In this document: positions 13,249 to 50,838 of the stretch, piece after piece
Layout: every line of letters starts with the position of its first letter
Position numbering within the stretch: the stretch's first letter is position 1
NCBI GenBank assembly: GCA_041687875.1
Contig: JBDNJH010000176.1
Span: 1 to 56,674 of the forward strand
Reading direction: 5' to 3'
Source: Flavobacteriales bacterium
Lineage (GTDB): Bacteria; Bacteroidota; Bacteroidia; UBA10329
DNA: 56,674 bases
The notes under the pieces: model-generated
What the model was told of the DNA's origin: nothing
The model's input: only the letters and a program-made list of their open reading frames with translations
Database searches by the model: none
Made by a program: the position numbers and the translations under genes

Positions 13249-13275
13249 TAGTTTGAAACGAAAAAATTAAAGGTC

Positions 13276-16200: not shown

Positions 16201-17328
16201 TACAAGTTGGCAAGCCACGCTGATAGTGTGATGTCTCCAAGTTGGAGCAAGTTCAAAACACTAAACGATCTTGAGAATTTGGCAAGTGTGGATGTGGAGA
16301 TTACGGATGATAAATCAAAATGGACACGCTGTCCAGTATTTGAAACGGGTGACTCGTATAATAGTCAGGGAGTTCCGTATCTGCCTTCTATCGGAGGGGC
16401 AAAACGCTTCAACCTGCGGATGAGTCCATCTGTGGATAAGGAAGGAAAGCCAGACGGATCAGGCACAATGGGAATGGGATGGTTTCCAGGGTTTGCTATC
16501 AATGTTGAAACTGGCGAGCGATTGAACATGGCGTTTGGTGAGAATTCTTGGTTGCAGCAGAGCAATGGTGCAGACATGATATGGAATCCAACGGATGAGT
16601 TGTTCGGAAACTTCAATCAGGATCTTGGCTTCCCAGATCCAATTTTTGGAGGAGGTCATTACATCTACGTGTTTGGACATAATGGCGATAGCCCGAATGA
16701 CGATGTGCCAGCTTATGACGAAGGAGCTTTCATCTACAGCAAACTATCTGAAAACAATTTCGATCCGGGCGATCCGTCAAAAAGACGTGTGTTTAAGGAT
16801 GCTATGTGGGTCGGCATGCCTTTGCTTGCTCAAAATGGCAAATTGCTAGAGAATATTGTGAATTTCAGCTTGAGAGTAACCAAACCTTATAGGCAGAATT
16901 TTGCTCCGGGTTGGTCAGTTGCTCAACCTGAGAACGACAACCTTCCGATGTACACCTTCTCAACATCTGATTTTGCAACAGTAAGAACCGATTTGCCAAC
17001 TGCTGAGAGTGCTTTAGACATTATTCGTGCTGTTCCTAATCCTTACTATGCACATTCTGGATATGAGCAAACACAGCTTGATAATGTTGTAAAAATCATC
17101 AATCTACCAGTAGAATGTACGGTTAGTATCTACACGGTGAATGGAATTCTAGTGAGAAGGTTTAAAAAGGATTCACCAATCACATCATTGGATTGGGATC
17201 TTAATAACCACCAGAAGATTCCGGTAGCCAGTGGAGTGTACCTGATTCATATTGATGCTCCTGGCATTGGAGAAAAAGTGATAAAATGGTTTGGAACCAT
17301 CCGACAACTCGATTTGAACTCGTTTTAA
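13276..17328 (+). CDS. 1350-aa secreted protein with T9SS-type C-terminal domain
   Basis: Signal peptide (IANLSFA). The last ~100 aa (AVPNPYYAH...VSIYTVNGILV...SGVYLIHIDAPGIGEKVIKWFG) fit the T9SS type-A CTD pattern. No catalytic family recognised by eye. Confidence 0.8.
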   Translation: MSKQVKVLVIAAIMISIANLSFAEKTRGLGDSGNKTSGPKDLAADCAPPAGNINLELNNVRAKIQTGGDMWQDLATGNPSYEVPKNGGVHSIFSGSLWMGGVDVNNQLKVAAMKFRQGGYDFWPGPLNTTTAEIDPQTCAQYDKFFRITRTEVDEFVAWYLCSQDPDCDEGIDYAGYSIPASILNWPAHGDVAMGQDYNLAPYHDADGSGNYNPEDGGDYPYYDLNPSEFNCLIDREVKLFGDETLWWVFNDKGNIHTETNANPIGMEIRAQAFAFSTNDEINDMTFYNYELINRGSFTLNNTYFAQWVDPDLGFPQDDYVGCDVRRGLGYCYNGFAVDGTGGPQQYGANPPAVGVDFFQGPYQDNDGVDNPLYTNGEVAQAISEGGIVYKGIGVGYGDGKVDNERFGMRRFVYHNNAGQGNQATQDPNTGADYYNYMRGIWLDGAPMCYGETGHPSGGCDQGTLAGYMFPGDSDPFGWGTGGSIQPTWTEQSANTVPFDRRFMQSAGPFTLEPGAVNDITVGVVWARATNSSDPYESVEKLRVVDDKAQSLFDNCFVLIDGPDAPELSIVELDRELILTLFNPSSSNNKNEDYAQIDPFIALDPPNITNNIFRFEGYQIFQLKNESVSSSELNNPDVARMVVQCDIKNIDPLTNQPIGQLVNFTFSEELNASIPVEMVDGSNDGLKHSFKIVQDQFATTDRQLVNHKKYYFMAVAYSYNNFKTYDQTDPLQLDGQKAPYLAGRKNAFGGAIASVVAIPHKTEPEQRGTVLYAEYGDGPMLTRVEGQGNGGRNLTLVRQSIRDILASPDGRAKEITYANGAGPVDIKVIDPKNLPNADFVFKMNDSITLGDLSDAYWTLECIGGNCPPLVSQVSDSLKVWSSKPNGLSNGNEQLIPQWGLSVFLEQTIDPECNNNEAVIDGRISFSGTKFWLTGIPDVDGTSPLNWIRSGTVDGIDYGCDDEQIYEKILNGTWAPYKLASHADSVMSPSWSKFKTLNDLENLASVDVEITDDKSKWTRCPVFETGDSYNSQGVPYLPSIGGAKRFNLRMSPSVDKEGKPDGSGTMGMGWFPGFAINVETGERLNMAFGENSWLQQSNGADMIWNPTDELFGNFNQDLGFPDPIFGGGHYIYVFGHNGDSPNDDVPAYDEGAFIYSKLSENNFDPGDPSKRRVFKDAMWVGMPLLAQNGKLLENIVNFSLRVTKPYRQNFAPGWSVAQPENDNLPMYTFSTSDFATVRTDLPTAESALDIIRAVPNPYYAHSGYEQTQLDNVVKIINLPVECTVSIYTVNGILVRRFKKDSPITSLDWDLNNHQKIPVASGVYLIHIDAPGIGEKVIKWFGTIRQLDLNSF

Positions 17329-31691: not shown

Positions 31692-31692
31692 T

Positions 31693-32730
31693 TTAGATAA
31701 CCATCCCAATCATTACCCGCATTTCTGCCCTATTCGGGTCTTTGAGAATTTCATTCTGAATGATGGTTGAAACGATAGTTTCTGCATTATCAGGATAATT
31801 AACCCGTATCTGGTTTTCCTCTTCCAACCAAGTGCGAACTTGGTAGTGGCATTTTTTCTTCAGCGATTTAATGGTCGGTATTCCCATCTGATACAGAGCA
31901 AGCGCATTGCATTGCTGCTCAAACTGCGCCTTCATTGGCACCACGCAAAGCTTTTTTCCAAGGAAAAGTGCTTCCGTGGTGGCACCAAAACCCGCTGCAC
32001 ACAACACGCCAGCACACGAAGCCAAGCTTTTCAAGTATTGCTCATTATTAATCGGGCGAAGCCACACATTCTCATCAATAAAACCTTCGTTTCCATGTTT
32101 GCTAAAAACCTGCCAGTTCGTTTCTGGGAAACACTTCAATGCTTTTACAATCCGAATATCACTGTGCGCAGGAAGGTAAACGAGGTAATGGTCCTGATTG
32201 GAGGTTTTGAGTTGGCGCACTTCCTTGCGCACAATTGGCGTGAAGATGCTCGGATTGTAGCGCTGAAAGTGAAAACCATACGCATCCGAAACGGGCGCGT
32301 AATTCTGAAGAATAAATTTGCCCAGCATGTCACCACTTTCCACCACAGGTGCACCTTCGCTAAGTATCGAAGCCTGATTACTCAACCCGATACAACGCTT
32401 TTGCGCCAAGATGCACGCCCATGCAGAAACAGGTTCAAAATCAGAGATTATAAGGTCGTAAGGCGAAACATCCAACGAATTAACCTCGCGCACAAACCTG
32501 CGCGTGCGGTTGTTCTTATAGGTCTTGGTAAAACTGATGCCGCCCTTTTCGCCAAAGATGAAACTCAGGCCATGAAAGCGATAACGCACCTCAAACGGCA
32601 ACTGCAATTCACACTGATTGCCACTCAAAAGCACATCCACCTTTCCGCGTTTCTGTAAGTGCGGAATAATCTCCATCGAACGGCTCAGATGGCCGTTGCC
32701 CGTTCCCTGAATAGCGTAGAGTATTCTCAT
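31693..32730 (-). CDS. glycosyltransferase (GT-B, MJ1255-like family)
   Basis: 345 aa. N-terminal ILYAIQGTGNGHLSRS and C-terminal AGFGATTEALFLGKKLCVVPM. Confidence 0.7.
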   Translation of the reverse strand: MRILYAIQGTGNGHLSRSMEIIPHLQKRGKVDVLLSGNQCELQLPFEVRYRFHGLSFIFGEKGGISFTKTYKNNRTRRFVREVNSLDVSPYDLIISDFEPVSAWACILAQKRCIGLSNQASILSEGAPVVESGDMLGKFILQNYAPVSDAYGFHFQRYNPSIFTPIVRKEVRQLKTSNQDHYLVYLPAHSDIRIVKALKCFPETNWQVFSKHGNEGFIDENVWLRPINNEQYLKSLASCAGVLCAAGFGATTEALFLGKKLCVVPMKAQFEQQCNALALYQMGIPTIKSLKKKCHYQVRTWLEEENQIRVNYPDNAETIVSTIIQNEILKDPNRAEMRVMIGMVI

Positions 32731-33581
32731 GCACGTCTGAAGCTGAATTCCTCAATTAACCCAAAAAGAATTTCCTGACTGCTCTGTTCCACCGCCAAAT
32801 CTGGCTCAAGCAGGAAGTCTATCAAGAATACATCTTCCTCATAACGGTAAAGGCTCCATTCGCCATCGTTATATTCTAGTGATGTCAGGTTCTCAATCCA
32901 ATCACCACTGTTCATGTACGTAATCTGACCGTCATCGCCCTTTATGGTCTTGATAATCGGTTTGTGGATGTGACCACAAATCACATTGTCATATCCGTTC
33001 GAAATGCCGATTAGCGCCACAGTCGTTTCAAAATCGTTCACATGCTTCACCGCAGCCTTCACGCTATCTTTAATTCGTTTTGAGAATGAAATCTTCTCCT
33101 TGCCAATACGCTCCAACCAGCGGTTCACAAATCGATTGAAGAGAATAAGCAGGTCGTAACCCTGCCCGCCTAACTTGGCTATCCATTTCGAGTAGCGCAT
33201 GGTCACATCAAACACATCGCCATGGAATATCCACGACTTCTGCCCATCCAGTTCCAGCACCACCTTATTGTCAATATGGAGGTTTCCAATCGTCTGACCG
33301 CAAAATTTGCGCACAAACTCATCATGATTGCCAGGAATGTAATACACCTGCACACCCTTCGAAAGCATGTTCGTAATCTCCTTGATTACACGGATGTGCT
33401 CCTTCGGGAAATAGCTTTTACTGAACTGCCAGATGTCAATAATGTCGCCATTCAAGATCAGTTTTTCAGGACGAATGCTCTTCAGGTAACGCACTAGTTC
33501 CTCGGCATGGCAGCCGTAGGTTCCAAGGTGCGTATCGCTGATAATGACGGTTTCCACCGCACGTCTCGTCTCAAATTTCAT
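32727..33581 (-). CDS. LpxH-like UDP-2,3-diacylglucosamine diphosphatase (calcineurin-like phosphoesterase)
   Basis: 284 aa. Metallophosphoesterase motifs ISDTHLG, NGDIID, GNHD and GHIH. Overlaps the glycosyltransferase start by 4 nt. Confidence 0.75.
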   Translation of the reverse strand: MKFETRRAVETVIISDTHLGTYGCHAEELVRYLKSIRPEKLILNGDIIDIWQFSKSYFPKEHIRVIKEITNMLSKGVQVYYIPGNHDEFVRKFCGQTIGNLHIDNKVVLELDGQKSWIFHGDVFDVTMRYSKWIAKLGGQGYDLLILFNRFVNRWLERIGKEKISFSKRIKDSVKAAVKHVNDFETTVALIGISNGYDNVICGHIHKPIIKTIKGDDGQITYMNSGDWIENLTSLEYNDGEWSLYRYEEDVFLIDFLLEPDLAVEQSSQEILFGLIEEFSFRRA

Positions 33582-33651
33582 GGCTTTGGTTTATGGGTTT
33601 TGGCATATCGTATTTCTTCGCAAAGCGGAATGCAGCACGAATGGCCGCAAA

Positions 33652-33675
33652 TAAAAAAAGACGCAAAAGCGTCTT
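33652..33675 (-). terminator. intrinsic terminator on the minus strand about 290 nt downstream of the nearest minus-strand stop
   Basis: On the minus strand, aagacgc tttt gcgtctt is followed by ttttttt. Confidence 0.65.
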
Positions 33676-33964
33676 AAATCGGAGGTGAAACATGCTAGAA
33701 GTTTGGAACACCGTTTGGGAGAAATATTGAGGGTTCTTTTCCTTGCTCCTAATCTGGGAACTTCCGTGCAAATGCGGTGGAATAACTGCTCTCGCCTTTC
33801 GGACCATCAAGTCCTTGGTGTTGGTTTGTGCAAAGGAACAGCAACCATCCGCACCACTCATTAAGCACAGATTACCCTTCAGTTAAATGTCAGGTGCAGC
33901 CAAGCTTACGAAACCATGTCAATGCGAGAAATTTCTTTCCGAAAATTTCGTGGCAATCGTCCTT

Positions 33965-34435
33965 TCAATAAACAATCAGCACATTCTGTCGGTCGCCACT
34001 CACGTTCTTATGAATCTTTTTGGCCAAGGCTTCGGCCTTTTCCTTGTTCACAGTGCCTTGCTCTTCAATAACGCCATCCTTGTACAAAGCCTCATAGATC
34101 CGTTTGGCTGGCAAATCCGTTTCAAACGTGATATTCTCATCCATAAACGTTGCCACAGCATACCATTTTTTGGTGGTCTTCGGGTAGCTGGTCCGCTTCG
34201 GATCATTCATGTTATTGTAGGCAGGGTTGGGCACATCAAACGAATGCCATTCTACCTTGATGAGATTTTTGTCTTCCAGATTCGAGATGATCTCGTTGCC
34301 ATAGTCCTTGTTCGTTTTCAGGTATTCGATTCCATCCACAGTAATCAGACCCTTCTTCACCTTTATCTTCTGAGCATGCACCGCAGTTGTAGCAACAAGG
34401 AACAATAGGAAAATGGAAAGCAAGTTCTTTATCAT
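33965..34435 (-). CDS. hypothetical secreted protein
   Basis: 156 aa. Signal peptide (FLVATTAVHAQ). Confidence 0.6.
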   Translation of the reverse strand: MIKNLLSIFLLFLVATTAVHAQKIKVKKGLITVDGIEYLKTNKDYGNEIISNLEDKNLIKVEWHSFDVPNPAYNNMNDPKRTSYPKTTKKWYAVATFMDENITFETDLPAKRIYEALYKDGVIEEQGTVNKEKAEALAKKIHKNVSGDRQNVLIVY

Positions 34436-34656
34436 CTTAGTAAGAGTTGGTTAAAGCATAAATCTACGCATTGATGTAACCGAAGCACGGTTGGTGTGAA
34501 AAATTCCTTGCAAGCACTCACCGTGCTCCCAAGTCTTCTGCATAACGACTGATGTGATTCATAGCACAACCAGTTTGCAACTAATCTCAACACAAGCAGC
34601 AAACCTTCAGGGCTGACAGGGTTTATTCAACTAACTCCCTTAAAATTCCCGAAACT

Positions 34657-34761
34657 GCCATAACTCCCGTGACGACTGGCATAACTCGCATGACGTTTGG
34701 CATAACTCGTATGGTAATTGCCATAACTCCCGTGGAAACTGCCATAACTCGCACGGTAACT
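34657..34761. repeat. five tandem 21-bp repeats (GSCATAACTCSYRYGR...)
   Basis: Units start at 34657, 34678, 34699, 34720 and 34741, each with an invariant CATAACTC core in exact 21-bp register. Lies in the divergent intergenic region upstream of fabG. Confidence 0.85.
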
Positions 34762-34811
34762 TCACCCTAGAATCCAAAATGCTGAACTACCCCTTGGCAT
34801 CTTCGCTTTCC

Positions 34812-35818: not shown

Positions 35819-37903
35819 TTGAGCATAATCTTCCAATATTCAACATGGTTTTTGCTGCTGGCCCTTGTGGTCGGGGTAGCCTACGCCCTCGGAATGTATT
35901 TCCGCGAAAAGCGTACAGCCACAATGCCCATTTGGATGCTGCGTGGCTTGGCGGCAGTCCGCGGTATCACCATTTTTATTCTCGTTGTACTGCTGATTGG
36001 TCCGTTGATCAAATCAGTCACCAAGCGCACCGAAAAACCAATTGTAGTTATAGCACAAGACAATTCTTCGAGTATTCCGCTGAACAGCGATAGCGCCTTT
36101 TACCGTACCGAATACTTAGAAGGACTGGCGGCATTGCGCGCTTCTCTTTCGGACGAATACGAAGTGCGGAGCTACGTGTTTGGCAATGCAGTGAACGAAA
36201 CCGAAACACCAGATTTCTCTGATGGCAGAACCGATATGTCAGAACTTTTTGAAGAGTTGGATAATGTCTATGCCAATCGTAATGTGGGCGCGGTAATCCT
36301 TGCTTCGGATGGATTGTACAACCGAGGCCGCGACCCTATTTACAGCCCGCTGCATCTCAATACGCCCATCTATTCCATCGCCTTGGGCGATACAAGTATC
36401 AAGCGAGATGTGATTTTGAAAAAGGTTGACCACAACCGATATGCCTACTTGGGAAATGAATTTCCGGTGGATATAACCATAGAGGCTGAGAAGTTCCAAG
36501 GAAAGGACGTAACCGTTCAGCTTTCGGGCGATAACGGCATACTGTGGGAGCAGCGCGTGAGCATCAACAGCAACTCATTCCGCAAGGTAGTATCAGCCAA
36601 ACTAAAAGCCCAAGTGCCTGGATTGAATCGAATTCGTGCCAGTGTAAGCGTACTAAGCGGAGAACTTTCGCGAAGCAATAACACGCAGGATTTCTTTGTA
36701 GAAGTGCTAGACGGACGGCAGAAGGTGCTCATTCTTGCGGCCAATCCGCACCCAGATATTGCAGCCATCAAACGAAGCATCAGCGGCAACGATAACTACG
36801 AAGTGGATGCGTTTGTATTGGGCGAAAAGGAGTTCAATACCGAGCAGTACGACCTTATTATTCTGCATCAATTACCACAAACAGGAGGGAAGGGAAGACC
36901 CGACATGGATAAAATCCGTGCTTCAACCGTTCCTGTGTTCTGTATTGTGGGTGGCAAGACCGACCTACGCTGGTTCAACGATATGAACTTCGGATTGCAG
37001 ATAAACGCAGCAAGACAAAGCAAGAACGAAGTGCTTCCTGTTTTTGCCAAAGGTTTTTCGCTTTTCACCTTAGACGAGAATGTGCGAAGAATGCTGCAAC
37101 GCTATCCGCCACTCAACGCACCTTTTGGGGAATACGCAGCAAGCGGTTCGGCTCAAACGCTCTTCAATCAACGCATCGGAAACGTGGAAACACAGAATCC
37201 GCTTCTGCTTTTCAATGATGTATCTGGAAGAAAGACAGCTGTGTTGGTTGGCGATGGTATTTGGCGATGGCGAATAAGAGACTTTGAGGAGAATGGTTCT
37301 CACGAGATATTTGATGGAATGCTCTCAAAAGTGGTGCAATTCCTTGCGCTCAAAACCGACAAGAGTCTGTTCCGAGTAAATACAAAAAACCGTTATTCAG
37401 AAGATGAGGTGGTTGTATTCAACGCAGAACTCTACAACGAAACCTACGAGCCCATCAACGAGCCAGAAGTCGATTTGACCATAACCGATGAGCAAGGGAA
37501 GGTGTACGAGTACAAATTCAACCGAACAGACAACGCCTATCGATTGAATGCTGGAAGCTTCAAAGAAGGAAACTACCGTTACAAGGCGCAGGTAAGCAAT
37601 GGCGGAAAGGTGCTCGAAAGTTCAGGCCAGTTCATGGTAGCCGCTCTCAAACTAGAAACCACCCGCACCACTGCCGACCACGCTTTGATGTATAAGATTG
37701 CCAACGGTTCAGGCGGTTCGCTTTTCTTCCCACGCGAGTTAGACAAGCTGGCAGAGGCCATTAAAGCACGAGACGACATCCGCAACGTGGTGTACGAACA
37801 AACGTTGTTCAAAGAAGCCATTCATTTGAAGTGGATATTCTTTCTCATCCTTGCCTTGCTCAGTCTTGAGTGGTTTGTGAGGAAAAGAAATGGGGCTTAC
37901 TAA
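35819..37903 (+). CDS. membrane protein with N-terminal double-TM (BatA-N-like) region and C-terminal TM anchor
   Basis: 694 aa with a TTG start. TM segments at the N-terminus (WFLLLALVVGVAYALG, ITIFILVVLLIG) and C-terminus (IFFLILALLSLEWF). The central part is not recognised confidently. Confidence 0.65.
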   Translation: MSIIFQYSTWFLLLALVVGVAYALGMYFREKRTATMPIWMLRGLAAVRGITIFILVVLLIGPLIKSVTKRTEKPIVVIAQDNSSSIPLNSDSAFYRTEYLEGLAALRASLSDEYEVRSYVFGNAVNETETPDFSDGRTDMSELFEELDNVYANRNVGAVILASDGLYNRGRDPIYSPLHLNTPIYSIALGDTSIKRDVILKKVDHNRYAYLGNEFPVDITIEAEKFQGKDVTVQLSGDNGILWEQRVSINSNSFRKVVSAKLKAQVPGLNRIRASVSVLSGELSRSNNTQDFFVEVLDGRQKVLILAANPHPDIAAIKRSISGNDNYEVDAFVLGEKEFNTEQYDLIILHQLPQTGGKGRPDMDKIRASTVPVFCIVGGKTDLRWFNDMNFGLQINAARQSKNEVLPVFAKGFSLFTLDENVRRMLQRYPPLNAPFGEYAASGSAQTLFNQRIGNVETQNPLLLFNDVSGRKTAVLVGDGIWRWRIRDFEENGSHEIFDGMLSKVVQFLALKTDKSLFRVNTKNRYSEDEVVVFNAELYNETYEPINEPEVDLTITDEQGKVYEYKFNRTDNAYRLNAGSFKEGNYRYKAQVSNGGKVLESSGQFMVAALKLETTRTTADHALMYKIANGSGGSLFFPRELDKLAEAIKARDDIRNVVYEQTLFKEAIHLKWIFFLILALLSLEWFVRKRNGAY

Positions 37904-37956
37904 TTAGCGAATTGGATAATTAGCGAATATGCTAATGGAAATCCGTGTTAATCAGT

Positions 37957-38289
37957 TCAATCTGTTTTCTGTCTCACCTCAATAGGTCCAAATTTCAGTG
38001 GTTGCTCCAATACGTTTAGAACCTGTGAGGAAAGATGATGTAATGTCAGATAAGAGTTGTCTTCGGCATTAAACACAATGACGCAGATTGGATACTTCTC
38101 AAAGTTCTGCTGAAACTGCAGGTTCTTGTCAAAAGTAAGGAGTACTTCAAAATTCTTACTCAACATCAGTTCCAGGAGTTCTCCATTCTTCTTGCTGTTC
38201 CACCCCATGTCACGAACCGTGTATACCTCATGGGCCGAAAGGTCGGTTTTGAGCTTTTTCGGAAGATTCTCGTCAAGCAACAGCTTCAT
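37957..38289 (-). CDS. DUF5615-type PIN-like toxin candidate
   Basis: 110 aa. MKLLLDENLPKKL...TFDKNL pattern typical of DUF5615 partners of DUF433 proteins. Confidence 0.7.
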   Translation of the reverse strand: MKLLLDENLPKKLKTDLSAHEVYTVRDMGWNSKKNGELLELMLSKNFEVLLTFDKNLQFQQNFEKYPICVIVFNAEDNSYLTLHHLSSQVLNVLEQPLKFGPIEVRQKTD

Positions 38290-38515
38290 AGAACTTGCCT
38301 ATCTGGTCTGAACCAATGAGTTTATTGGCAATTTCCAACACGCCATTTACCTGTTTGCGCGTAACGCTGGGGAAATCATCCAAGAAATCATCAATACTGA
38401 TTCCCTTCTCCAAATGCCAAAAAAGACTCTGAACAGGAACGCGGGTGCCGCTAAAGACCGGCTGGCCACCTTGAATTTCCTTATCGATGGTAATATGGTC
38501 GCTTAATAGGCTCAT
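38273..38515 (-). CDS. DUF433-type antitoxin candidate
   Basis: ATG at 38515 gives MSLLSDHITIDKEIQGGQPVFSGTRVPVQSLF.... The longer track ORF to 38587 runs into a relic of the M23 gene. Overlaps the downstream toxin by 17 nt. Confidence 0.7.
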   Translation of the reverse strand: MSLLSDHITIDKEIQGGQPVFSGTRVPVQSLFWHLEKGISIDDFLDDFPSVTRKQVNGVLEIANKLIGSDQIGKFYEAVA

Positions 38516-38520
38516 TACCT

Positions 38521-38528
38521 CAAAGATA
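38521..38528 (-). promoter_or_regulatory. candidate -7 box (TATCTTTG on the minus strand) in the conserved spacer upstream of the DUF433 gene
   Basis: Same box and same spacer as at 40643..40650. Confidence 0.4.
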
Positions 38529-38550
38529 AGCTTTAGGTTCTCGAAATAAG

Positions 38551-38621
38551 TTACTGAACGGTTATATTCAATTCCCTCACATTTCATACCGCATCTGTAG
38601 CTGAAATACGGAAAGTGTTCT
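38551..38621 (-). repeat. relic R1 of the 3' end of the M23 peptidase gene (true copy at 40673..40766)
   Basis: The minus strand reads TFRISATDAV*NVRELNITVQ*, against FRISATDAVGNVRELNITVQ* in the intact gene. By hand, most positions match over about 70 nt. Confidence 0.75.
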
Positions 38622-38730
38622 ACGAAAAACCAACATTAAAGAAGCTATTCATTTGAATTGGATCTTCTTTCTCATCTTTGCCTTGCTCAGTCTTGAGTGG
38701 TTTGTGAGGAAAAGAAATGGGGCTTATTGA
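38615..38730 (+). repeat. relic of the 3' end of the 694-aa gene (true copy at 37787..37903)
   Basis: The last 93 nt (38638..38730 against 37811..37903) differ at 6 positions by hand alignment. A 1-nt indel lies upstream. A stop codon is retained (TGA instead of TAA). Confidence 0.85.
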
Positions 38731-38734
38731 TTTG

Positions 38735-39412
38735 ATGATGGACGGATTATCCAAGATTCGAATTTTAGCAATTGTGTTTCTGTTCTCGGTTTATGCAACC
38801 GCGCAAGAAACCAAACTGACCGATTCTAAAACCTTTAAGTTCCAGAACGGAGACTTGCTTTTTCAAGACTTGGATTGTGGAGGTTTATGCACAGCTATTG
38901 AAACCGTAACAGAAGGGGTTGACGGAAAGTCGTTTTCGCACTTAGGTCTGGTTCATATTTATAATGATTCCGTAGTCGTTATTGAAGCCATCGGAGAGGG
39001 CGTTCAAGTAACACCTATTCAGGTATTTGTTAATCGCAACTTAGATGCAGCAGGAAACCCTAAAGTAATTGTGACTCGATTGGTTGATGACAATTTATCT
39101 CTGAAAAAGAAGGCACTGGATTTTGCGGTAGCTCAACTTGGAATGCCGTACGATGATGCTTTTCTCTACAATAACGGAAGCTACTATTGCAGCGAGCTGA
39201 TTTACGATGCATTCAAATTCGCCAATGACGACCGGCCGTTTTTTGAGCTCCGTCCAATGACTTTCAAAGATCCTGCAACCAACGAGATGTTTCCAGTTTG
39301 GGTGGAATATTACGAGAACTTAAAAATGCCTATTCCCGAAGGAGAGTTGGGCTGTAACCCCGGTGGGATTTCTAGAAGTGAGAAGCTACACGTGGTGGCT
39401 TCGTTCTATTGA
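38735..39412 (+). CDS. YiiX/YaeF-like permuted papain-fold (NlpC/P60 superfamily) hydrolase, secreted
   Basis: ATG at 38735 gives a signal peptide (ILAIVFLFSVYATAQ). SHLGLV and YYCSELIYDAF motifs fit the family. The track start at 38717 lies inside the relic repeat. Confidence 0.7.
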   Translation: MMDGLSKIRILAIVFLFSVYATAQETKLTDSKTFKFQNGDLLFQDLDCGGLCTAIETVTEGVDGKSFSHLGLVHIYNDSVVVIEAIGEGVQVTPIQVFVNRNLDAAGNPKVIVTRLVDDNLSLKKKALDFAVAQLGMPYDDAFLYNNGSYYCSELIYDAFKFANDDRPFFELRPMTFKDPATNEMFPVWVEYYENLKMPIPEGELGCNPGGISRSEKLHVVASFY

Positions 39413-39483
39413 ACCATCACAACCAATTTCTGCACATTCTCAACTTTGTGTTTTGTCTGTATCTTCGTTCAAAGCTTAGAATA

Positions 39484-39723
39484 ATGAAAACGCGAGAAGA
39501 GTTTCACAAATTGATTGATACGATTGAAGACGATGAAGTGCTACAGGCGTACTATCAACTTATCAGCGGACTCAACGCAGGAAAGAACGGGCAAGTGTGG
39601 AATTCGCTGTCTGAAGAAGAGCAAGAAGAGGTTTTAGCCTCTTATGAAGAAAGCTTGGATAAGCATAACCTGATAGATCACAGCTTGGTAGCAGAAGAGC
39701 ACGCTAAATGGTTGAAAAAGTAA
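39484..39723 (+). CDS. antitoxin partner of the ParE/RelE-family toxin
   Basis: 79 aa from the ATG at 39484 (MKTREEFHKLIDTIEDD...). Its stop overlaps the toxin start (ATGGTTGAAAAAGTAA). Confidence 0.6.
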   Translation: MKTREEFHKLIDTIEDDEVLQAYYQLISGLNAGKNGQVWNSLSEEEQEEVLASYEESLDKHNLIDHSLVAEEHAKWLKK

Positions 39724-40004
39724 TCTGGACACCACGGGCTACCGCAAAGTTAAGAGCGATTATTCGGTATCTAGAATTGAATTGGAACGAGAAGGTAACT
39801 CGTGAGTTTGCCCAGAAAACATTCGCGTCAATTCAGTTGATTTCAGATCAGCCAACAATGGGCGAATTAGTTGATGAGAAGAAACAAATTCGTGGTTTTC
39901 GAATTACCAAACACAATCGGCTTTTCTATACTGTTGCAGACAAAGAGCTGATTGTCCTCAACATGTTTGATAATAGACAAAGTCCCAAAAACAAACGATA
40001 CTGA
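39708..40004 (+). CDS. ParE/RelE family type II toxin
   Basis: 98 aa. MVEKVIWTPRATAKLRAIIRYL...LIVLNMFDNRQSP fits the ParE-like pattern. Confidence 0.7.
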   Translation: MVEKVIWTPRATAKLRAIIRYLELNWNEKVTREFAQKTFASIQLISDQPTMGELVDEKKQIRGFRITKHNRLFYTVADKELIVLNMFDNRQSPKNKRY

Positions 40005-40007
40005 GAT

Positions 40008-40101
40008 TTATTGAACCGTTATGTTCAACTCCCTCACGTTACCCACAGCATCGGTAGCTGAAATACGAAACGTGTTTTGTCCGCTGATGAAATGCTTGCT
40101 C
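40008..40101 (-). repeat. relic R2 of the 3' end of the M23 peptidase gene
   Basis: A 52-nt core (ctcacgttacccacagcatcggtagctgaaatacgaaacgtgttttgtcc) is identical to 40697..40748. The minus strand reads SKHFISGQNTFRISATDAVGNVRELNITVQ*. Confidence 0.85.
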
Positions 40102-40408
40102 AAAACATCTTTCTCAGTCGAGAAGGGTCTTGGCGACAATCGAAAATATCTGCCACTCTTATCTGTTCCAATTCTTCATTGACCGTATAAAGGATTTTGA
40201 AGTCGCCCTCAACTACATACCTATATTCGAGTTTTCGATTCTCCAGCAACGGTTCTCGTTGCCCAGAATAAGGCGTGTTCTGTAAATGAATAGTTGAGAT
40301 GAGGAGTTTACGCGCTAACTCAAATGCTGCGGTTTCTGAGAAGTGCTCTGTGTAAAAATCAACAATGTCCGATAAACGATGTTCAGCAGATCGTGACCAG
40401 ATTACTTC
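40100..40408 (-). pseudogene. ParE/RelE-family toxin ORF with no canonical start codon
   Basis: Hand translation gives EVIWSRSAEHRLSDIVDFYTEHF...FKILYTVNEELEQIRVADIFDCRQDPSRLRKMF*. The frame is open from 40435. No ATG, GTG or TTG occurs before codon ~58 of the frame that opens at 40435. It is missing from the ORF track for that reason. Confidence 0.55.
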
Positions 40409-40638
40409 AAAATTCGTCTGTACTTCGCAAGAAGATCAGTTGCGGAAACGAACTCACCAGCTTCAAATTCTTTTTCAGAACAATCAAGTCGCTTGTGAAG
40501 TTCCTCTAATGTAATCGGTTTAAACTCAATATTCATTCTCACATTTCGCAACAAGTCCTCCACTTTTTGAAGCAGACTTTCATCTTCCAGTTGGAGGACT
40601 GATTGGGCTAAGTGAATTTTGCGTTGATCAAGTGTCAT
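40402..40638 (-). CDS. antitoxin candidate upstream of the start-less ParE-like ORF
   Basis: 78 aa. Its stop overlaps the toxin-like frame exactly as in the 39484/39708 pair. Confidence 0.55.
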   Translation of the reverse strand: MTLDQRKIHLAQSVLQLEDESLLQKVEDLLRNVRMNIEFKPITLEELHKRLDCSEKEFEAGEFVSATDLLAKYRRILK

Positions 40639-40642
40639 GTAT

Positions 40643-40650
40643 CAAAGATA
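40643..40650 (-). promoter_or_regulatory. candidate -7 box (TATCTTTG on the minus strand) in the conserved spacer
   Basis: Lies in the 34-nt spacer between the M23 stop and the antitoxin ATG. The same sequence occurs at 38521..38528. Confidence 0.4.
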
Positions 40651-40672
40651 AGTTTTTGGTTCTCGAAATAAG

Positions 40673-42382
40673 TTACTGAACGGTAATATTCAGTTCTCTC
40701 ACGTTACCCACAGCATCGGTAGCTGAAATACGAAACGTGTTTTGTCCAGTAATGAAACGCTCGTCTTTGGTGTAATAAAGCAAGCTGTTCTTCGGGTCTT
40801 GTTGCAGAAGTACCCATTTCCCGTTGAGGGTTGCGGTCACGGTCTTTACACCCGCAAGGTTGTCGGATAGCGTGAATTCCAGACGTGCAAGACCAGCAGT
40901 GGAGGTTTGATCTTTGAAATTCTTCGGTGTGACACGAGGAGCGATACTGTCCAGCATCACGGCATAGTCGCCAAAGCTGCGGCTCTTGGTGGTCATCCAA
41001 TTCCATTTAGCAGAACCACCTTCGCTAATCGGATTTCCATTCTTATTGAAGGAAACCATCAAAGCTTTCGAGGTTTTGGTTTCCGAGAGTTTGTTCATCT
41101 CGATGGAAACCGTCATGTAACTGTCTAAAGGAGTATCGAGAATCTTGCCAATGGAATGAACGGGTGACACACAGCCTTTGCAAGCTGGTTTGAGGTCGTA
41201 TTTGAATTTGAGCGTATCGTAGAGACAGCCGTTGGGAATGTTGAGACGAAGTGAATTGTTGGTGAATGCGTTTTCCTGAAGTGGGTAGAAGAGGTCGGTG
41301 ATGTCTTCTTTAGGTGCTAAAACCGAGGCCGAATGTTCGTGTCCGAGGATAGAGAAATTCAAGGTTGATTTGTTTCCTGCGTAATCCAATACCTCGATGG
41401 AGATTTCGTAGGTCTTTCCTTTTTCAATCTGTACGGTTCCTTGGTCTTTGACTGTTGGATACATGCTTAACTTGTTTCCGGGAGCTATGTAAGAGCGATA
41501 AACCTTCAAGTTGTCAATCTTGTTCTTCTGATAGTCGGTGTGGCAATTGACCATGCGTTTCTGGTCGAAGGAAACTTTATCCAATCTCTGCTCGTGGATG
41601 ATGACTCCATTCACCTTAACCTTCATACCATAAATACCACAAGGGTTGGTGGCATTGCTGAAACGGTCTAGTGCCGCAATTCCAAAACTGAGAATGCCCG
41701 AAGCTTTGATGGGAGCAGCTGCGGTGAGGGTGTAATTACCAGTTGTACCTTGAATAGCAAAACCTTTATCGTGGATGAGTCCTTCTACATGGCCGCTTAT
41801 AGCATGGTTGTAAACGAAGAGTTTTTGAAGTTCGGGTCGCTTATCATCCTTCACTTTGAAACCGTAGTTGAGCGGATTTTCGGGATGTTGCCCGATGGTT
41901 TCGCGAATCTCGAAGTGGAGGTGCGGTCCGCCCGAACCACCTGAATTGCCGCTTTTGGCTATCAGTTGTCCTTTCTTGATAGGAAATTTGGAGGAAGTGA
42001 AAGCCAAGTCAACTTCGAAAGATTCTTTGGCGTATTGCTGTTCTTTTACATACGCAGCAATTTCTGGTGCAAATTCGCGCAGATGACCGTAAACCGTGGT
42101 CTTTCCGTTTGGATGTTCGAGGTAAACGGCCTTGCCGAAACCGCCACCAGCCACGGTGAGTCGTGACACGAAACCGTCAGCCACAGCATAAATTGGTTTG
42201 CCTTCCACGCCTCCAGTTTTGATATCCAATCCCGAATGGAAATGATTGGTGCGCACCTCACCGAAGTTGCCCGAAAGGATGAGTTCGCCATCCATAGGGT
42301 TTCGGTATTCGGTTTCTTGCGCGAGCGAGGGAAAAATGGATGAAAGAAAAAGGAAAAAAGTGATGCTTCGCATGAAGTTCAA
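40673..42382 (-). CDS. M23 family metallopeptidase, large secreted form
   Basis: 569 aa. Signal peptide. HFHSGLDIKTGGVEGKPIYA and GGSGGPHLHFEI motifs. Confidence 0.9.
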   Translation of the reverse strand: MNFMRSITFFLFLSSIFPSLAQETEYRNPMDGELILSGNFGEVRTNHFHSGLDIKTGGVEGKPIYAVADGFVSRLTVAGGGFGKAVYLEHPNGKTTVYGHLREFAPEIAAYVKEQQYAKESFEVDLAFTSSKFPIKKGQLIAKSGNSGGSGGPHLHFEIRETIGQHPENPLNYGFKVKDDKRPELQKLFVYNHAISGHVEGLIHDKGFAIQGTTGNYTLTAAAPIKASGILSFGIAALDRFSNATNPCGIYGMKVKVNGVIIHEQRLDKVSFDQKRMVNCHTDYQKNKIDNLKVYRSYIAPGNKLSMYPTVKDQGTVQIEKGKTYEISIEVLDYAGNKSTLNFSILGHEHSASVLAPKEDITDLFYPLQENAFTNNSLRLNIPNGCLYDTLKFKYDLKPACKGCVSPVHSIGKILDTPLDSYMTVSIEMNKLSETKTSKALMVSFNKNGNPISEGGSAKWNWMTTKSRSFGDYAVMLDSIAPRVTPKNFKDQTSTAGLARLEFTLSDNLAGVKTVTATLNGKWVLLQQDPKNSLLYYTKDERFITGQNTFRISATDAVGNVRELNITVQ

Positions 42383-46976: not shown

Positions 46977-47093
46977 CTAGTGCAAATTACGGTAGAGGTG
47001 AGGCAGCATAAATGGTTGGAGATCACAGTTTTCATCAGTCAGTTGTTAATTATCTGAATCCGAATTATTTTCACACTTAGAAATTCAAAATTG

Positions 47094-49151
47094 ATGAAGG
47101 CTTGGAACGCGTTTCCGATGGTGCGCCTCGTTCTGCCATTCATGGCGGGAATTGTCCTGTTTTCGTTTCTGTTGGAGGAGGTTGAATTTGGTACGGAGCT
47201 GATTTTATTAGGGCTATTATTCGCAGGTATCCTTATCGCATCATTGGCAATTGCCCATGGCAAGGGGAGGCGGCCTCATTTGTTTGGGCTGTGTCTCATG
47301 CCGCTACTTTTTTTACTGGGAGGGCTCCTTACTATTTCAGGTTCTAACTACGTTTTTCCTGAACATTTGAATGAAGAAAAGTTAGGAAATACTGCTCAAG
47401 TCTTCTCGGCAAGGGTGTCAGAACAACCTCAAGTAAAGGAAAAGTCTGTTAAGGTTGTTGCCAATCTGGTAGACAAAACCGAAACCATGAATGGAACGGC
47501 ACTACTTTACTTTCAGGTTGATTCAGCTTCGCTCTATCCGAAGTACGGAGAAGAACTCTTGATTAAAACCCAATTACAACCAGTCTTAGAGGTAGGAAAT
47601 CCGAATGAGTTCAATTATCCGAGGTATCTGCGTTTCCACGACATTCTTTTTAGAGGATATGTGAAGTCAGATGATTGGAAGCGTTTATCACGTGGAAGTC
47701 CTGGAGTTACTGGCTGGTTTGCGGATTTTCGGTCAAAACTTATTGGGAAGTTCAAGGAAGCTGGACTGGAAGGAGATGAACTTTCGGTGGCATCAGCACT
47801 TATTTTGGGACATAGAACAGAACTGGATAAGGACCTGATGGCCGCGTATGCAGGTGCGGGGGCTACCCATGTATTGGCTGTTTCAGGGTTACATGTTGGT
47901 ATCGTTTACCTAATTCTGAATAATCTTCTCCGTTTTCTTGACAGATATAAGTTTGGGAAGATTCTTAAGACGGTGCTCTTAATTGCCTTGCTTATGGGCT
48001 ACGCTATATTAACTGGTCTATCGGCTTCGGTATCCCGAGCAGCCGTCATGTTTGTCTTTGTTGCTTTTGGAAAAGCAATGGATAGAGATTCGAACATTTT
48101 TAATACCCTGGCAGCATCAGCATTTTTCCTTCTTCTTTATGATCCCATGATGATAATGCAGGTTGGATTTCAGCTTTCTTATTTGGCGGTTATCGGAATT
48201 GTGGTCATCCATCCAATCTTGTTCAACTTAAAAACAGTTGAAAATAGGTTGGCCGATTGGATATGGTCAATTTCCTGCGTATCAATAGCAGCCCAGATTG
48301 TGACGTTTCCGTTGGGATTGCTCTATTTTCATCAGTTCCCAAACTTGTTTCTCTTGTCAAATCTTGTTGTGATTCCTGCGGCAACCCTAATTCTTTACCT
48401 CGGATTTGGTCTGCTTGTATTCGGTCTTTGGACGCCTTTACTTCCGGTCTTTGGTTTTTTGCTGAAGTGGGTCATTCTGATTCTGAATCAAGTTGTTGTT
48501 TGGATTGAGCAGATTCCATATTCTGTCCTGTCTGGAATTGATATTTCAACTGTTGAAGCCCTAATGATCTATTTTATAATCTTAGGGATTCTCGTATTTA
48601 TAATTCAACAACAACGAATTGGGTTTTATCTGAGCCTAGGTGTTGCATTCATCTTTATGATCTTTCAAACGGTTGAGGTTTACGAACAGAAGAATCAAGA
48701 ATTCATCACCGTCTACAACGTGAAGGGACAAACTGCTGTAGCACTGGTGAATGGAACAGAGGTAACTTTCATTTCAAGGAAAGAGCTTTATGAAAATGAG
48801 CAAGCCATGCTGTTTCATATCCGCCACCATTGGTGGAACAAAGGAATAGAAGACGAAAAATTTATTGAGTTGAATGACTCTTTAATGAACCGTAGGCTGG
48901 CTTGGGGCGGTAAGTCGCTTGCCATCCTAAATCTAAAAGATAGTTCAGGTCTAAAGATGTTACAGGAAGAAAATATCACTCACTTTATTGTTGATGCTTC
49001 AGATTGGAAGAACTGTCAAACTTTGTCTGAACTCAACGGAGAACTTATTATTTCCAATCGATTCGGGTTTAAAACTGCGGATAGAATCAGACATCTGAAT
49101 CCTGAGAAAGCACGGTTCGTTTCAGAAATTGGTGCGCTTACTATTGATTGA
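47094..49151 (+). CDS. comEC: ComEC/Rec2 family competence channel protein
   Basis: About 685 aa and polytopic. GATHVLAVSGLHVGIV competence-domain motif. Confidence 0.85.
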   Translation: MKAWNAFPMVRLVLPFMAGIVLFSFLLEEVEFGTELILLGLLFAGILIASLAIAHGKGRRPHLFGLCLMPLLFLLGGLLTISGSNYVFPEHLNEEKLGNTAQVFSARVSEQPQVKEKSVKVVANLVDKTETMNGTALLYFQVDSASLYPKYGEELLIKTQLQPVLEVGNPNEFNYPRYLRFHDILFRGYVKSDDWKRLSRGSPGVTGWFADFRSKLIGKFKEAGLEGDELSVASALILGHRTELDKDLMAAYAGAGATHVLAVSGLHVGIVYLILNNLLRFLDRYKFGKILKTVLLIALLMGYAILTGLSASVSRAAVMFVFVAFGKAMDRDSNIFNTLAASAFFLLLYDPMMIMQVGFQLSYLAVIGIVVIHPILFNLKTVENRLADWIWSISCVSIAAQIVTFPLGLLYFHQFPNLFLLSNLVVIPAATLILYLGFGLLVFGLWTPLLPVFGFLLKWVILILNQVVVWIEQIPYSVLSGIDISTVEALMIYFIILGILVFIIQQQRIGFYLSLGVAFIFMIFQTVEVYEQKNQEFITVYNVKGQTAVALVNGTEVTFISRKELYENEQAMLFHIRHHWWNKGIEDEKFIELNDSLMNRRLAWGGKSLAILNLKDSSGLKMLQEENITHFIVDASDWKNCQTLSELNGELIISNRFGFKTADRIRHLNPEKARFVSEIGALTID

Positions 49152-49467: not shown

Positions 49468-50838
49468 TTATTTCTCAGCAGTTTTAATGTACTCCGAAAT
49501 TGCTTCAACACTTGCCTTTAACACACCAAGCTCCTTGCTTTGAGAATTGATAATGTCTTGTTGTTCTTTGATTGCTTCTAAAAGCAATGGAACCATGTGG
49601 CTGTATTGAACGGATTTGTAGCCATTCTCATCTGTGCTAACCAATTCAGGAACGAATTTCTCAATCTGTTGGGCTATTACACCATATTCCATTCTGTCAG
49701 TAAATGATCTTTCAGGGAATTCTTCTGTTCTCCAGTTGTAGGTTACTCCTTCCAAACTCAAAACAGTTGACAATGCATTTGAAATACCAGCGATGTTCTT
49801 CTTGAATCGAGCATCTGATGTTTCCTGAATTCCCTGAGAATTGAACTTGCCATCGATGGTTAAATTACCATCATGAGCCAAAAACAATCGTTCTTCAAGG
49901 CTACCACCTGATAGGAGCGAAATGTGAAAACGACCTTGAGTATTTGCACTTGGGTTGGTAACACCAAGACGGCCAAGCGTAGCGGCTGGAGCAAAGGAGT
50001 TTGCAAAGTCAATAAAACCAACTTCCCTCGTGTTTCCTGCGCTTGGAGCACTTCCTCTGTTTCCAATTAATCTCATTCCTACGCCATTGGACGCAGCAGT
50101 ATTTTCAATTGTATAAGCCGTATTAGTGTTGTCTGAGTTAGGATTGCTTCCAGAAGTAGTAATAGACACTTGCATCTGTTTTACAGGAAAAACTTTGATG
50201 TTTTCCATATTTGCAGTAGCGTCAAACGCAATTCTTGGAGAGGTCGAGCCTCTTCCGATCCAACCACCATCAACGGTCGTTAAAATGTTTCCTTGTCCAG
50301 CAGCTGGAGTAAGAGCAGCATCACCAACTCTAATACCTTGCCCAACGGCCAATGTTGATGCGACAGATGCCGTGGTTCCAACAGTCAAAGTCGTTCCTAT
50401 TCTTCCTGTTGCGCTAATATCGAAGCTTCCTGGAGTTTGTGTACCAGGGGTAATACTTGTGTTGATTATAAAACCTCCTGTAACGTCATCTTCACTAGCA
50501 AGATATTTCCAAGTAGTACCGTTCCAAAAAGTGTATCGTCCAGTCCCTGTAGATAATGGTGCATCAGTAGTATAAACTATCATGCCCAAATCTCCTGAAG
50601 CGGTAGGACCAACACCCAATGCCCCACCCCTTTGCGCTGTTGTCATTCGAGGTAGCAAGACACCTTTATATCTGTTGCTTGCAGATGGTACATTCACATT
50701 GATGTCTAGAAGCGAGTTCGGATCTGGAGTTGCACCGTTGTCACTTATCCCTACAGATTGTCCAAGCGCATCGTTAAGCGTCAATGAGGTGACAGAAGTT
50801 AAGATCAGGCCAAGTAGGATTTTGTTTATGTGTTTCAT
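49468..50838 (-). CDS. secreted protein with C-terminal phage tail-fibre/endosialidase intramolecular-chaperone (Peptidase_S74-like) domain
   Basis: 456 aa. Signal peptide. Gly/Thr/Ser-rich beta-rich body. C-terminus SDARFKKNI...LEGVTYNWR...YGVIAQQIEKFVPELV...VQYSHMVPLLLEAIKEQQ plus a terminal coiled coil. Confidence 0.8.
   Translation of the reverse strand: MKHINKILLGLILTSVTSLTLNDALGQSVGISDNGATPDPNSLLDINVNVPSASNRYKGVLLPRMTTAQRGGALGVGPTASGDLGMIVYTTDAPLSTGTGRYTFWNGTTWKYLASEDDVTGGFIINTSITPGTQTPGSFDISATGRIGTTLTVGTTASVASTLAVGQGIRVGDAALTPAAGQGNILTTVDGGWIGRGSTSPRIAFDATANMENIKVFPVKQMQVSITTSGSNPNSDNTNTAYTIENTAASNGVGMRLIGNRGSAPSAGNTREVGFIDFANSFAPAATLGRLGVTNPSANTQGRFHISLLSGGSLEERLFLAHDGNLTIDGKFNSQGIQETSDARFKKNIAGISNALSTVLSLEGVTYNWRTEEFPERSFTDRMEYGVIAQQIEKFVPELVSTDENGYKSVQYSHMVPLLLEAIKEQQDIINSQSKELGVLKASVEAISEYIKTAEK

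Follow-up and report, generated by a model that had tools for sequence, protein, structure and literature searches.

Minimal mobile elements and toxin–antitoxin (TA) islets are chromosomal sites at which, according to PMC3787668 (citing Saunders & Snyder 2002) and PMC13617665, one allele normally takes the place of another through double crossovers in the genes on either side; erosion has also been described for chromosomal TA loci (PMC13617665). In homology-facilitated illegitimate recombination the illegitimate joints usually form at 3–10 bp of microhomology and the events are normally insertions accompanied by deletions, and most recombinants in the same study were single crossovers of re-circularised molecules that left 109–950 bp duplications of the homologous segment (PMC3240628). 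The locus described here lies in the 56,674-nt contig JBDNJH010000176.1 of a Flavobacteriales bacterium (assembly GCA_041687875.1; the whole contig is called the window below) and fills the intergenic slot between two convergent core genes, one encoding a 694-aa protein (the 694 gene) and the other an M23 peptidase (the M23 gene). Three TA-type gene pairs (TA1, TA2 and TA3) and a YiiX-like gene stand there in a row, together with partial copies, or relics, of the 3′ ends of both core genes. The locus is best filed as natural, recurrent and still-segregating additive stacking of alleles with gene-end relics, in an uncultured Flavobacteriales population of the freshwater/Antarctic-lake type.

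The slot resembles minimal mobile elements and TA islets in having the same conserved flanks, different whole-gene cassettes in close relatives, no internal mobility genes and toxins that erode by point mutation and frameshift, and it may also share their spread by homologous recombination in the flanks. It differs from them in that alleles have accumulated here, each addition apparently leaving a partial duplicate of a flanking-gene 3′ end that is now an internal anchor. The proposed combination of one homologous crossover with one short-microhomology joint is like Campbell-type insertion-duplication and homology-facilitated illegitimate recombination, as these are presented in PMC3240628 and in the Streptococcus pneumoniae, Acinetobacter baylyi and Pseudomonas stutzeri work that it cites, and so are the 100-nt-scale duplication that flanks the insert and its reversibility by recombination between the repeats; the events of PMC3240628 were laboratory events on engineered substrates, whereas those considered here happened in nature and more than once, and their products have lasted over evolutionary time and are polymorphic among wild bacteria. 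As in tycheposons and genomic islands (10.1101/2020.12.28.424599), modules lie side by side, split by partial target-gene ends, with the newer next to the intact gene, but this locus has no integrase and no fixed crossover position, its units are only 0.67–0.83 kb long, its two target genes are approached from opposite sides, and one of its modules includes the end of the flanking gene on the far side.

Relics of the flanking gene ends

The 694 gene (35819..37903, plus strand; an open reading frame with no Pfam or NCBIfam match) and the M23 gene (40673..42382, minus strand; 569 aa; Pfam Peptidase_M23, E = 2.6e-19) converge with their stops at 37903 and 40673, as a preliminary description of this DNA had it, and both the open reading frames and the relatives (below) agree with this. 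When the window was compared with itself by BLASTN, the working 3′ end of the 694 gene (37775-37905) was found again at 38603-38732 with 85.5% identity over 131 nt and one indel (E = 1e-35), and the end of the M23 gene (its last 69–94 nt form the working copy of this repeat) was found twice: R2, at 40008-40096, matches 40673-40761 with 87.6% identity over 89 nt (E = 1e-24), and the stretch at 38520-38619 that includes R1 matches the M23 end and its downstream sequence at 40642-40741 with 87% identity over 100 nt (E = 6e-28). R1 and R2 match one another with 82.6% identity over 69 nt (E = 9e-13), and the same comparison gave no further internal repeats at E < 1e-6 in the 56.7-kb window. The repeat periods are 827 bp for the 694 end and 665 bp for the M23 end. 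Working and relic 694 ends share an identical block of 49 nt (38678-38726 = 37851-37899), R2 shares an identical core of 50 nt with the M23 end (40698-40747 = 40033-40082), and the repeats reach 40–80 nt past these identical blocks.

BLASTN and codon comparison place the last 22 codons and the stop of the M23 gene in R1 (38551..38621, minus strand), and R2 (40008..40099, minus strand) holds its last ~29 codons and stop; the 694 relic (38615..38730, plus strand) is frame-shifted by a 1-nt deletion, and the 25 nt beside its joint with R1 are more scrambled. Over the last 93 nt the working and relic 694 ends differ by 6 mismatches, with the stop kept as TGA versus TAA (TGA being that of the relic). 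Codon by codon, they differ by 3 synonymous, one stop-to-stop and 2 non-synonymous changes in 31 codons; of 23 codons compared between the M23 end and R1, 9 differ synonymously and one has become a nonsense codon (GGT>TGA), and of 30 compared between the M23 end and R2, 8 differ synonymously and 3 non-synonymously, two of these 3 lying at the inner edge. Purifying selection in separate genomes leaves divergence of this kind (12–17%, nearly all of it synonymous), and we therefore read the relics as gene ends that were once functional in other lineages and not as decayed local duplicates. The preliminary description had seen all three copies, with coordinates that are right to within a few bases, and the self-BLASTN that it proposed as a check finds the repeats significant. 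Its account of the 694 copy (38615..38730, 6 mismatches in 93 nt, an upstream indel, stop kept) needs no change; for R2 only the length of the identical core, put at 52 nt, is corrected to 50 nt, and R1 does have the internal stop ascribed to it, but the similarity was said to end at the M23 stop and in fact runs 31 nt further.

From left to right the slot contains the following. The spacer past the 694 stop (37904..37956) is homologous to the 694-downstream spacers of three related loci (L001, L002 and L129; related loci are denoted by L and a number), and in the alignment the YiiX start codon of L001 and L002 falls inside it. TA1 follows on the minus strand with a 110-aa DUF5615/PIN-like toxin (37957..38289; Pfam E = 3.9e-8; 1515 homologues in a homologue search) and an 80-aa DUF433 antitoxin (38273..38515; Pfam E = 1.2e-17) that overlaps the toxin start, and then come the first copy of a 31-nt stretch (38520..38550, minus strand; it matches the sequence 3′ of the M23 stop at 29 of 31 positions), R1 and the 694 relic. 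On the plus strand there follow a YiiX-like permuted papain-fold enzyme (38717..39412; Peptidase_C92, Pfam E = 2.4e-23, with an NCBIfam match) and TA2, which consists of a 79-aa antitoxin-like gene (39484..39723) and a ParE toxin (39708..40004; ParE_toxin, E = 1.2e-12). Beyond R2, which adjoins the TA3 toxin stop codon, the minus strand carries the ParE-like TA3 toxin (40100..40417; by translation an open frame, with an ACG start in the window haplotype), the TA3 antitoxin (40402..40638; 78 aa in the window and 74 aa in haplotypes whose toxin has ATG) and the second copy of the 31-nt stretch (40642..40672), between the antitoxin ATG and the M23 stop. The TA3 proteins of the window itself have no match in Pfam or NCBIfam; the toxin is called as a 105-aa ParE_toxin gene in L119-L123, and its homologue P0121 is 82% identical. 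TA1, TA2 and TA3 all have the adjacent or overlapping two-gene layout of type II TA modules (families DUF433/DUF5615, ParE_toxin, and ParE_toxin in TA3-intact haplotypes, respectively) and are TA-type pairs whose toxicity and neutralisation are predicted from gene content. This is the order originally proposed for the locus, and Pfam backs the DUF433/DUF5615, YiiX, ParE and M23 names that were given with it.

R1 and the 694 relic meet in an illegitimate joint (38611..38622) that runs from M23 position -69 to 694 position -117. The M23 parent reads ...ACGAAACGTGTTTTG, the 694 parent ...CGCAACGTGGTGTACG and the joint ...ACGGAAAGTGTTCTACG, and both parents contain the 6-nt microhomology AACGTG (at 37783-37788 in 694 and 40733-40738 in M23), which lies within the 3–10 bp range of PMC3240628; the meeting point had earlier been put at about 38612-38622, on a common GTG(T). 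At the R2/TA3 joint the M23-derived sequence continues to within 1–3 nt of the TA3 toxin stop, in keeping with the earlier remark that R2 directly abuts that codon, and the sequence shared there is 2–4 nt or fewer. Start positions differ between relics of the same gene (-117 in the window and -32 in L129 for 694; -69 in R1 and about -94 in R2 and L130 for M23), and the joints compared (R1/694-relic, R2/TA3 and that of L129) have no common motif.

The composite is not an assembly chimera: its order recurs, with 99–100% identity, in at least five metagenome assemblies made independently. It was assembled whole and independently, at 99.3–99.5% identity, in ERZ27247425 (36-kb contig) and JGI 3300007722 (43.6-kb contig). 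The R1/694-relic joint is crossed in ERZ27247429, JGI 3300007523 and JGI 3300032462 as well and is present in L070, L071, L119, L120 and L121, with six independent assemblies in agreement, and the R2/TA3 joint is crossed in several more assemblies. An assembler might have chained co-existing variants of the slot through their shared gene ends, and it fits such an artefact that short contigs break at or near the repeats (L076 at 40106, L077 at 37899 and L071 at 38661) and that TA1-bearing and TA1-less alleles derive from one sample series. Breaks like those of L076 and L077 are, however, expected wherever repeats and co-existing alleles are present; the M23(-69)/694(-117) joint is found in no simple allele, so walking a variant bubble could not make it; and the repeat copies are 12–17% diverged, with identical blocks of just 49–50 nt that are shorter than the assembly word of 141 nt which we take the k141_ in ENA contig names to mean. 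We give an artefact of this kind practically no weight.

Content of the slot in relatives

A scan with the 694-aa protein found 12 close relatives among species-representative genomes, all Flavobacteriales metagenome-assembled genomes with a 694 protein of 79–95% aa identity, and 8 metagenome contigs. The 694 and M23 genes are convergent neighbours wherever a contig reaches far enough (L001-L009, L033, L038, L079-L083 and L129-L131), and what stands between them varies: 36–87 nt without a gene (L005, L006, L008, L083), YiiX only (L002, L003, L009, L033, L079), YiiX with a DUF4926-like open reading frame (L001), YiiX with a solitary TA2-antitoxin-like gene and CxC lipoproteins (L081), YiiX with a 190-aa gene (L082), a 243-aa gene (L004), a 114-aa lipoprotein (L007) or a 217-aa lipoprotein (L038, L080). 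With the same flanks in the same orientation, varied content and no mobility gene within or adjoining it, the slot is a core-gene-flanked hotspot of gene content of the minimal-mobile-element kind. The preliminary description had allowed for every relative carrying the identical composite; among ~20 contigs the content is instead variable. YiiX alone is the commonest occupant, and is probably the ancestral resident of the slot rather than cargo. Self-BLASTN of 19 related loci found gene-end relics only in L129. A more distant relative, L084, has a 77-nt tandem direct repeat (2751-2887, 93.5% identical) just downstream of its 694 homologue, in sequence unrelated to the relics.

TA modules occupy the slot in two other arrangements. 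In L131 and L132 the order is YiiX, 50 nt, TA3, 34 nt and M23, with no M23-end relic; this TA3 has a toxin with an ATG start that is 82% identical (aa) to that of the window and an antitoxin that is 70% identical, and the L131 sample, 3300023237, is named in a paper on Ace Lake, Antarctica. L129 and L130 share a 608-nt overlap that is 100% identical and are for this reason taken as one genotype, whose 694 protein is 93% identical to the window's. This genotype is itself stacked: 694 is followed by a DUF6883/DUF4926 pair, a 694-end relic (32 nt plus spacer), a TA1 homologue (TA1′; 86% and 90% aa identical to the window TA1), a variant of the 31-nt stretch, and an M23 relic joined to a TA3 homologue (TA3′), the toxin of which is 96% aa identical to the window TA3 toxin. 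Homologue searches with TA3 returned only 3 toxin clusters and 2 antitoxin clusters, and TA3 is a rare module.

The M23-relic/TA3 joint of L130 is the R2/TA3 joint of the window, at ~84% nucleotide identity, and because it is shared with this lineage at such a distance the joint is old. On the far side of the M23 relic stands TA1 in L130 and TA2 in the window, so the relic must have served as a homologous anchor for the exchange of neighbours. We read the stack as built in at least two events of different age, the R2/TA3 joint being old and the R1/694-relic joint young and still polymorphic (below). The original idea was of three alternative occupants of one slot joined head to tail, each segment keeping both flanking gene ends. 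TA3 beside M23 without a relic in L131/L132 and TA1′ in the slot of L129/L130 bear out its first part, except that YiiX is probably the ancestral resident and not cargo; relics do accompany the TA1 and middle segments, but the TA3 segment has no 694-end copy of its own.

The two 31-nt copies (38520-38550 and 40642-40672) agree at 29 of 31 positions, with 0 matches expected by chance, and these are the only two sites of the stretch in the window, where no dispersed repeat of it was found. The stretch precedes the antitoxin ATG of both TA1 and TA3 by 3–4 nt, so that one slot-borne sequence lies equally far ahead of the starts of two unrelated antitoxin genes. It carries TATCTTTG, which ends 4–5 nt before the antitoxin ATG, and both TA1′ of L130 and TA3′ of L131 have the core AAAAACTTATCTTT(G/A)A upstream. 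TATCTTTG fits the Bacteroidota -7 promoter consensus, TAnnTTTG, and the transcript would presumably be nearly leaderless; we read the 31-nt stretch as a putative promoter that belongs to the slot. A scan for sigma-70 promoters and terminators gave nothing above shuffled sequence, the scan model being one that does not cover Bacteroidota promoters.

Alleles with and without TA1

Six contigs (L078, L125, L127, L128, L133 and L135, the longest of 17.4 and 14.8 kb) are without exactly the 827-bp TA1 unit and are otherwise ~99% identical to the window. Their 694 end is of the working type at four distinguishing sites and then, after the 49-nt block, of the relic type (TAT TGA TTTGATG...), and such a hybrid is the product to be expected from one homologous crossover within the 49-nt identical block; each of the six has the structure that a single crossover between the repeats, restoring a simple allele, would leave. 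Apart from the TA1 unit, L127 does not differ from the window between about 37600 and 39650, and the TA1-bearing L072 has left-flank single-nucleotide polymorphisms (SNPs) in common with L078, which is without TA1. The contig L077 breaks off at 37899, on the final base of the identical block, and the same sample gave the TA1-less L125, which suggests that both TA1 alleles co-exist in this sample. One TA1-less contig, L133, has a TA2 antitoxin called at just 42 aa (5670-5798) beside an intact ParE, which may be a truncation or a difference in gene calling.

SNPs are densely clustered within YiiX (9 SNPs in 37 nt at 39016-39052) and in the YiiX–TA2 spacer (39352-39501), and the clusters form a mosaic among haplotypes that indicates frequent short tracts of homologous recombination. 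TA1 is present or absent on several flank backgrounds alongside these mosaic clusters, the flank recombination events themselves not being observed. The 50-nt identity of R2 with the M23 end occurs only in the TA1-bearing haplotype; the TA1-less haplotype has an M23 3′ end of its own, with 9 SNPs in 58 nt (40703-40760), several of which match outgroups. The identity in the window haplotype is probably the result of gene conversion between the repeats, as an R2-derived conversion tract, or of allelic import. In L119 (JGI 3300007722) TA1 differs at 16 positions in 330 nt (38203-38535), or ~5% compared with roughly 0.5% elsewhere, and its toxin is split by a 1-nt deletion at 38203 into 69 + 40 aa; the divergent tract ends in the 31-nt stretch, the two copies of which are 31/31 identical in L119. 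The tract has the look of gene conversion or of a TA1 allele acquired by import.

The TA3 toxin varies in two ways. Position 40416 is G or A, giving an ACG start in the window, L070, L074-L076, L125 and L126 and an ATG start in L078, L119-L121, L123 and L127, and the same base sets the length of the overlapping antitoxin at 78 or 74 aa. In the TA1-less haplotype (L078, L125, L127 and L133-L138) a 1-nt insertion after 40222 shifts the toxin frame, with a called product of 65 aa, and is a second, independent inactivation of this toxin. Such erosion of the TA1 and TA3 toxins matches that of chromosomal TA loci (PMC13617665).

Formation of the stack and its setting

We consider it likely that the slot is a hotspot to which alternative alleles have been added by an illegitimate joint plus a homologous crossover, and whose modules have then been shuffled by way of the relics. 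The original allele of the lineage would have been 694–YiiX(–TA2)–M23, with the 694 relic, YiiX, TA2 and R2 as the old backbone and the 694 relic and R2 as its displaced original ends. At least twice, a short piece of an alternative slot allele would have been added instead of swapped in, each time by one illegitimate joint and one homologous crossover inside a gene end, through either single-crossover insertion of a re-circularised fragment or homology-facilitated illegitimate recombination ending in a duplication, and with each addition a new working gene end would have arrived, the previous one being displaced inward to become a relic. In the first event TA3 and a new M23 end would have been added and R2 left behind (the 665-bp period); in a later event a piece comprising 694 end, spacer, TA1, 31 nt and M23 end would have been added, with R1 fused to the old 694 end at AACGTG (the 827-bp period). 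The TA1 unit appears to have been cut from an allele of the same slot and not to be an element with arms of its own, because it carries the end of the opposite core gene (R1 with the 31 nt beyond the M23 stop); allelic origin is likewise indicated by its outer end, where it has the 694-downstream spacer known from L001, L002 and L129. The relics would now be portable homology through which homologous recombination inserts, removes or exchanges single modules between strains, and the short repeats would also convert each other. Direct repeats of the homologous segment stand on both sides of the insert, as they do after single-crossover insertion-duplication, and the structures have in this the signature of the re-circularised molecules of PMC3240628.

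The R1/694-relic joint also has the exact topology of a tandem duplication, unit end to unit start at a 6-nt direct microhomology, and could have arisen by duplication from 694(-117) to M23(-69) at AACGTG followed by allelic replacement of the cargo of one copy, so that only the gene-end repeats remained. The mosaic SNP tracts show that allelic exchange in the region is frequent, and the end product would be indistinguishable from that of stepwise addition. This route, however, needs two steps and an unstable intermediate, a perfect tandem repeat of at least 827 bp; no contig has two copies of the same cargo; and the R2/TA3 joint, at which the TA3 side ends at the toxin stop and not in a 694 end, is not explained by it. 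We regard it as unlikely. Less probable still, and in our judgement improbable, is serial site-specific integration, in which TA1 and TA3 would be minimal cassettes that a tyrosine or serine recombinase encoded elsewhere moves in trans, targeting the 694 and M23 3′ ends, and would carry a replacement gene end in their attachment site. The outcome would be like genomic islands or tycheposons that stack beside partial tRNA copies. Direct gene 3′-end repeats with a 49–50-nt identical block do mimic attL/attR around the units, alleles with and without the TA1 unit differ at precise boundaries, the cassettes are tightly delimited, and tandem elements split by partial target copies are known for tycheposons (10.1101/2020.12.28.424599). 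Against this, no integrase, transposase or excisionase emerged when the slot genes and 39 large open reading frames of the window were scanned with Pfam, in line with the earlier statement that no integrase or transposase is visible, and Pfam annotations of the called genes of related contigs, flanking genes among them, contain no integrase or transposase. The crossover position is not a common one either, since joints vary between events (-117 versus -32; -69 versus -94), the TA1 unit terminates on its inner side in the 3′ end of the other core gene and so in a piece of a slot allele and not in an element-specific arm, TA3 adjoins M23 in L131 with no duplicated target, and the repeats run 40–80 nt past the identical block with divergence of the coding type. 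Of the two mechanisms that the preliminary description had offered, homology-facilitated illegitimate recombination (or its single-crossover variant) thus fits and serial site-specific insertion fits poorly. The window yielded no tRNA genes and no Rfam match at E up to 1, and no small circular contig carrying TA1 is on record. An integron-like cassette reading was set aside, since no IntI-type integrase was found and, among the inverted repeats of the region, no conserved imperfect palindrome stands at the module ends.

Several points weigh against stepwise addition as set out above. Three routes (crossover of a circle, a one-sided homologous plus illegitimate event, and tandem duplication with replacement) give the same final sequence, and where classical homology-facilitated illegitimate recombination usually deletes recipient sequence, 117 nt of 694 and about 94 nt of M23 have here been duplicated. 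The hybrid 694 end of the TA1-less alleles fits pop-out of the unit just as well as it fits the unoccupied site of a Campbell-type pop-in, and the flank SNPs are shuffled. The tight boundaries, with the R2/TA3 joint 1–3 nt from the toxin stop and the starts of TA1 and TA3 3–4 nt past the 31-nt stretch, could hint at a more specific process, and the negative result for recombinases covers the 56.7-kb window and the related contigs, and such an enzyme may be encoded elsewhere in the genome. Among the relatives, the single-cargo alleles whose existence had been put forward as a check include YiiX only and YiiX with TA3 and no relic, but neither a genome with 694–TA1–M23 alone nor a relative with YiiX–TA2 alone was found; that search covered the context of the closest TA1 homologue, P0001 (86% aa), which lies in the same slot and is itself stacked, and the remaining DUF5615 matches are at most 71% identical. 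A ComEC gene (Competence and DUF4131 domains), already recognised in the preliminary description and placed by Pfam at 47091-49151, is permissive evidence only, with transformation as a possible entry route. The order of the strand events, like the route by which the DNA entered, is something that we infer.

More speculatively, TA addiction might make such a hotspot accreting: where a resident toxin is active, replacement recombinants should die, which would enrich the rare additive ones, so that modules would pile up, and the relics would act as recombinase-free, att-like anchors that move modules of 0.7–0.8 kb. Relics occur only in the two lineages with TA1/TA3 and in none of the 17 related slots without TA1/TA3, a small sample and a correlation, and the toxins are eroded in places (the ATG/ACG start of TA3, its +1 frameshift after 40222 and the 1-nt deletion of TA1 in L119). 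We regard this part of the proposal as doubtful.

Other parts of the window drew attention as well. A second variable island of 3.1 kb (31692-34782), with a family 1 glycosyltransferase, a metallophosphoesterase and a 173-aa open reading frame, is replaced in L070 and L071 (otherwise 98.5–99.4% identical) by ~710 nt with a 214-aa open reading frame; L072 has the window version, and the island has no flanking gene-end relics. A 456-aa open reading frame (49468-50838, minus strand), 300 nt downstream of the ComEC gene, has a Peptidase_S74 domain (chaperone of endosialidase), as phage tail fibres typically do. Two very large open reading frames of 957 and 1350 aa (10375-17328, plus strand) without a Pfam match may encode type IX secretion cargo, given their position, with a TonB-receptor-like N-terminal fragment on one side and a PorV-like gene on the other.

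The locus reveals no new molecular machine. Much of the variation in bacterial gene content arises in hotspots between core genes, where single events can rarely be read; here they are readable, because the relics, the microhomology joint and the co-existing alleles with and without TA1 record the integrase-free addition of DNA from alternative alleles. Gene ends left over in this way can later act as internal recombination anchors, and the 694/M23 slot offers a concrete locus at which to ask whether toxin–antitoxin addiction biases recombination toward accumulation over replacement.

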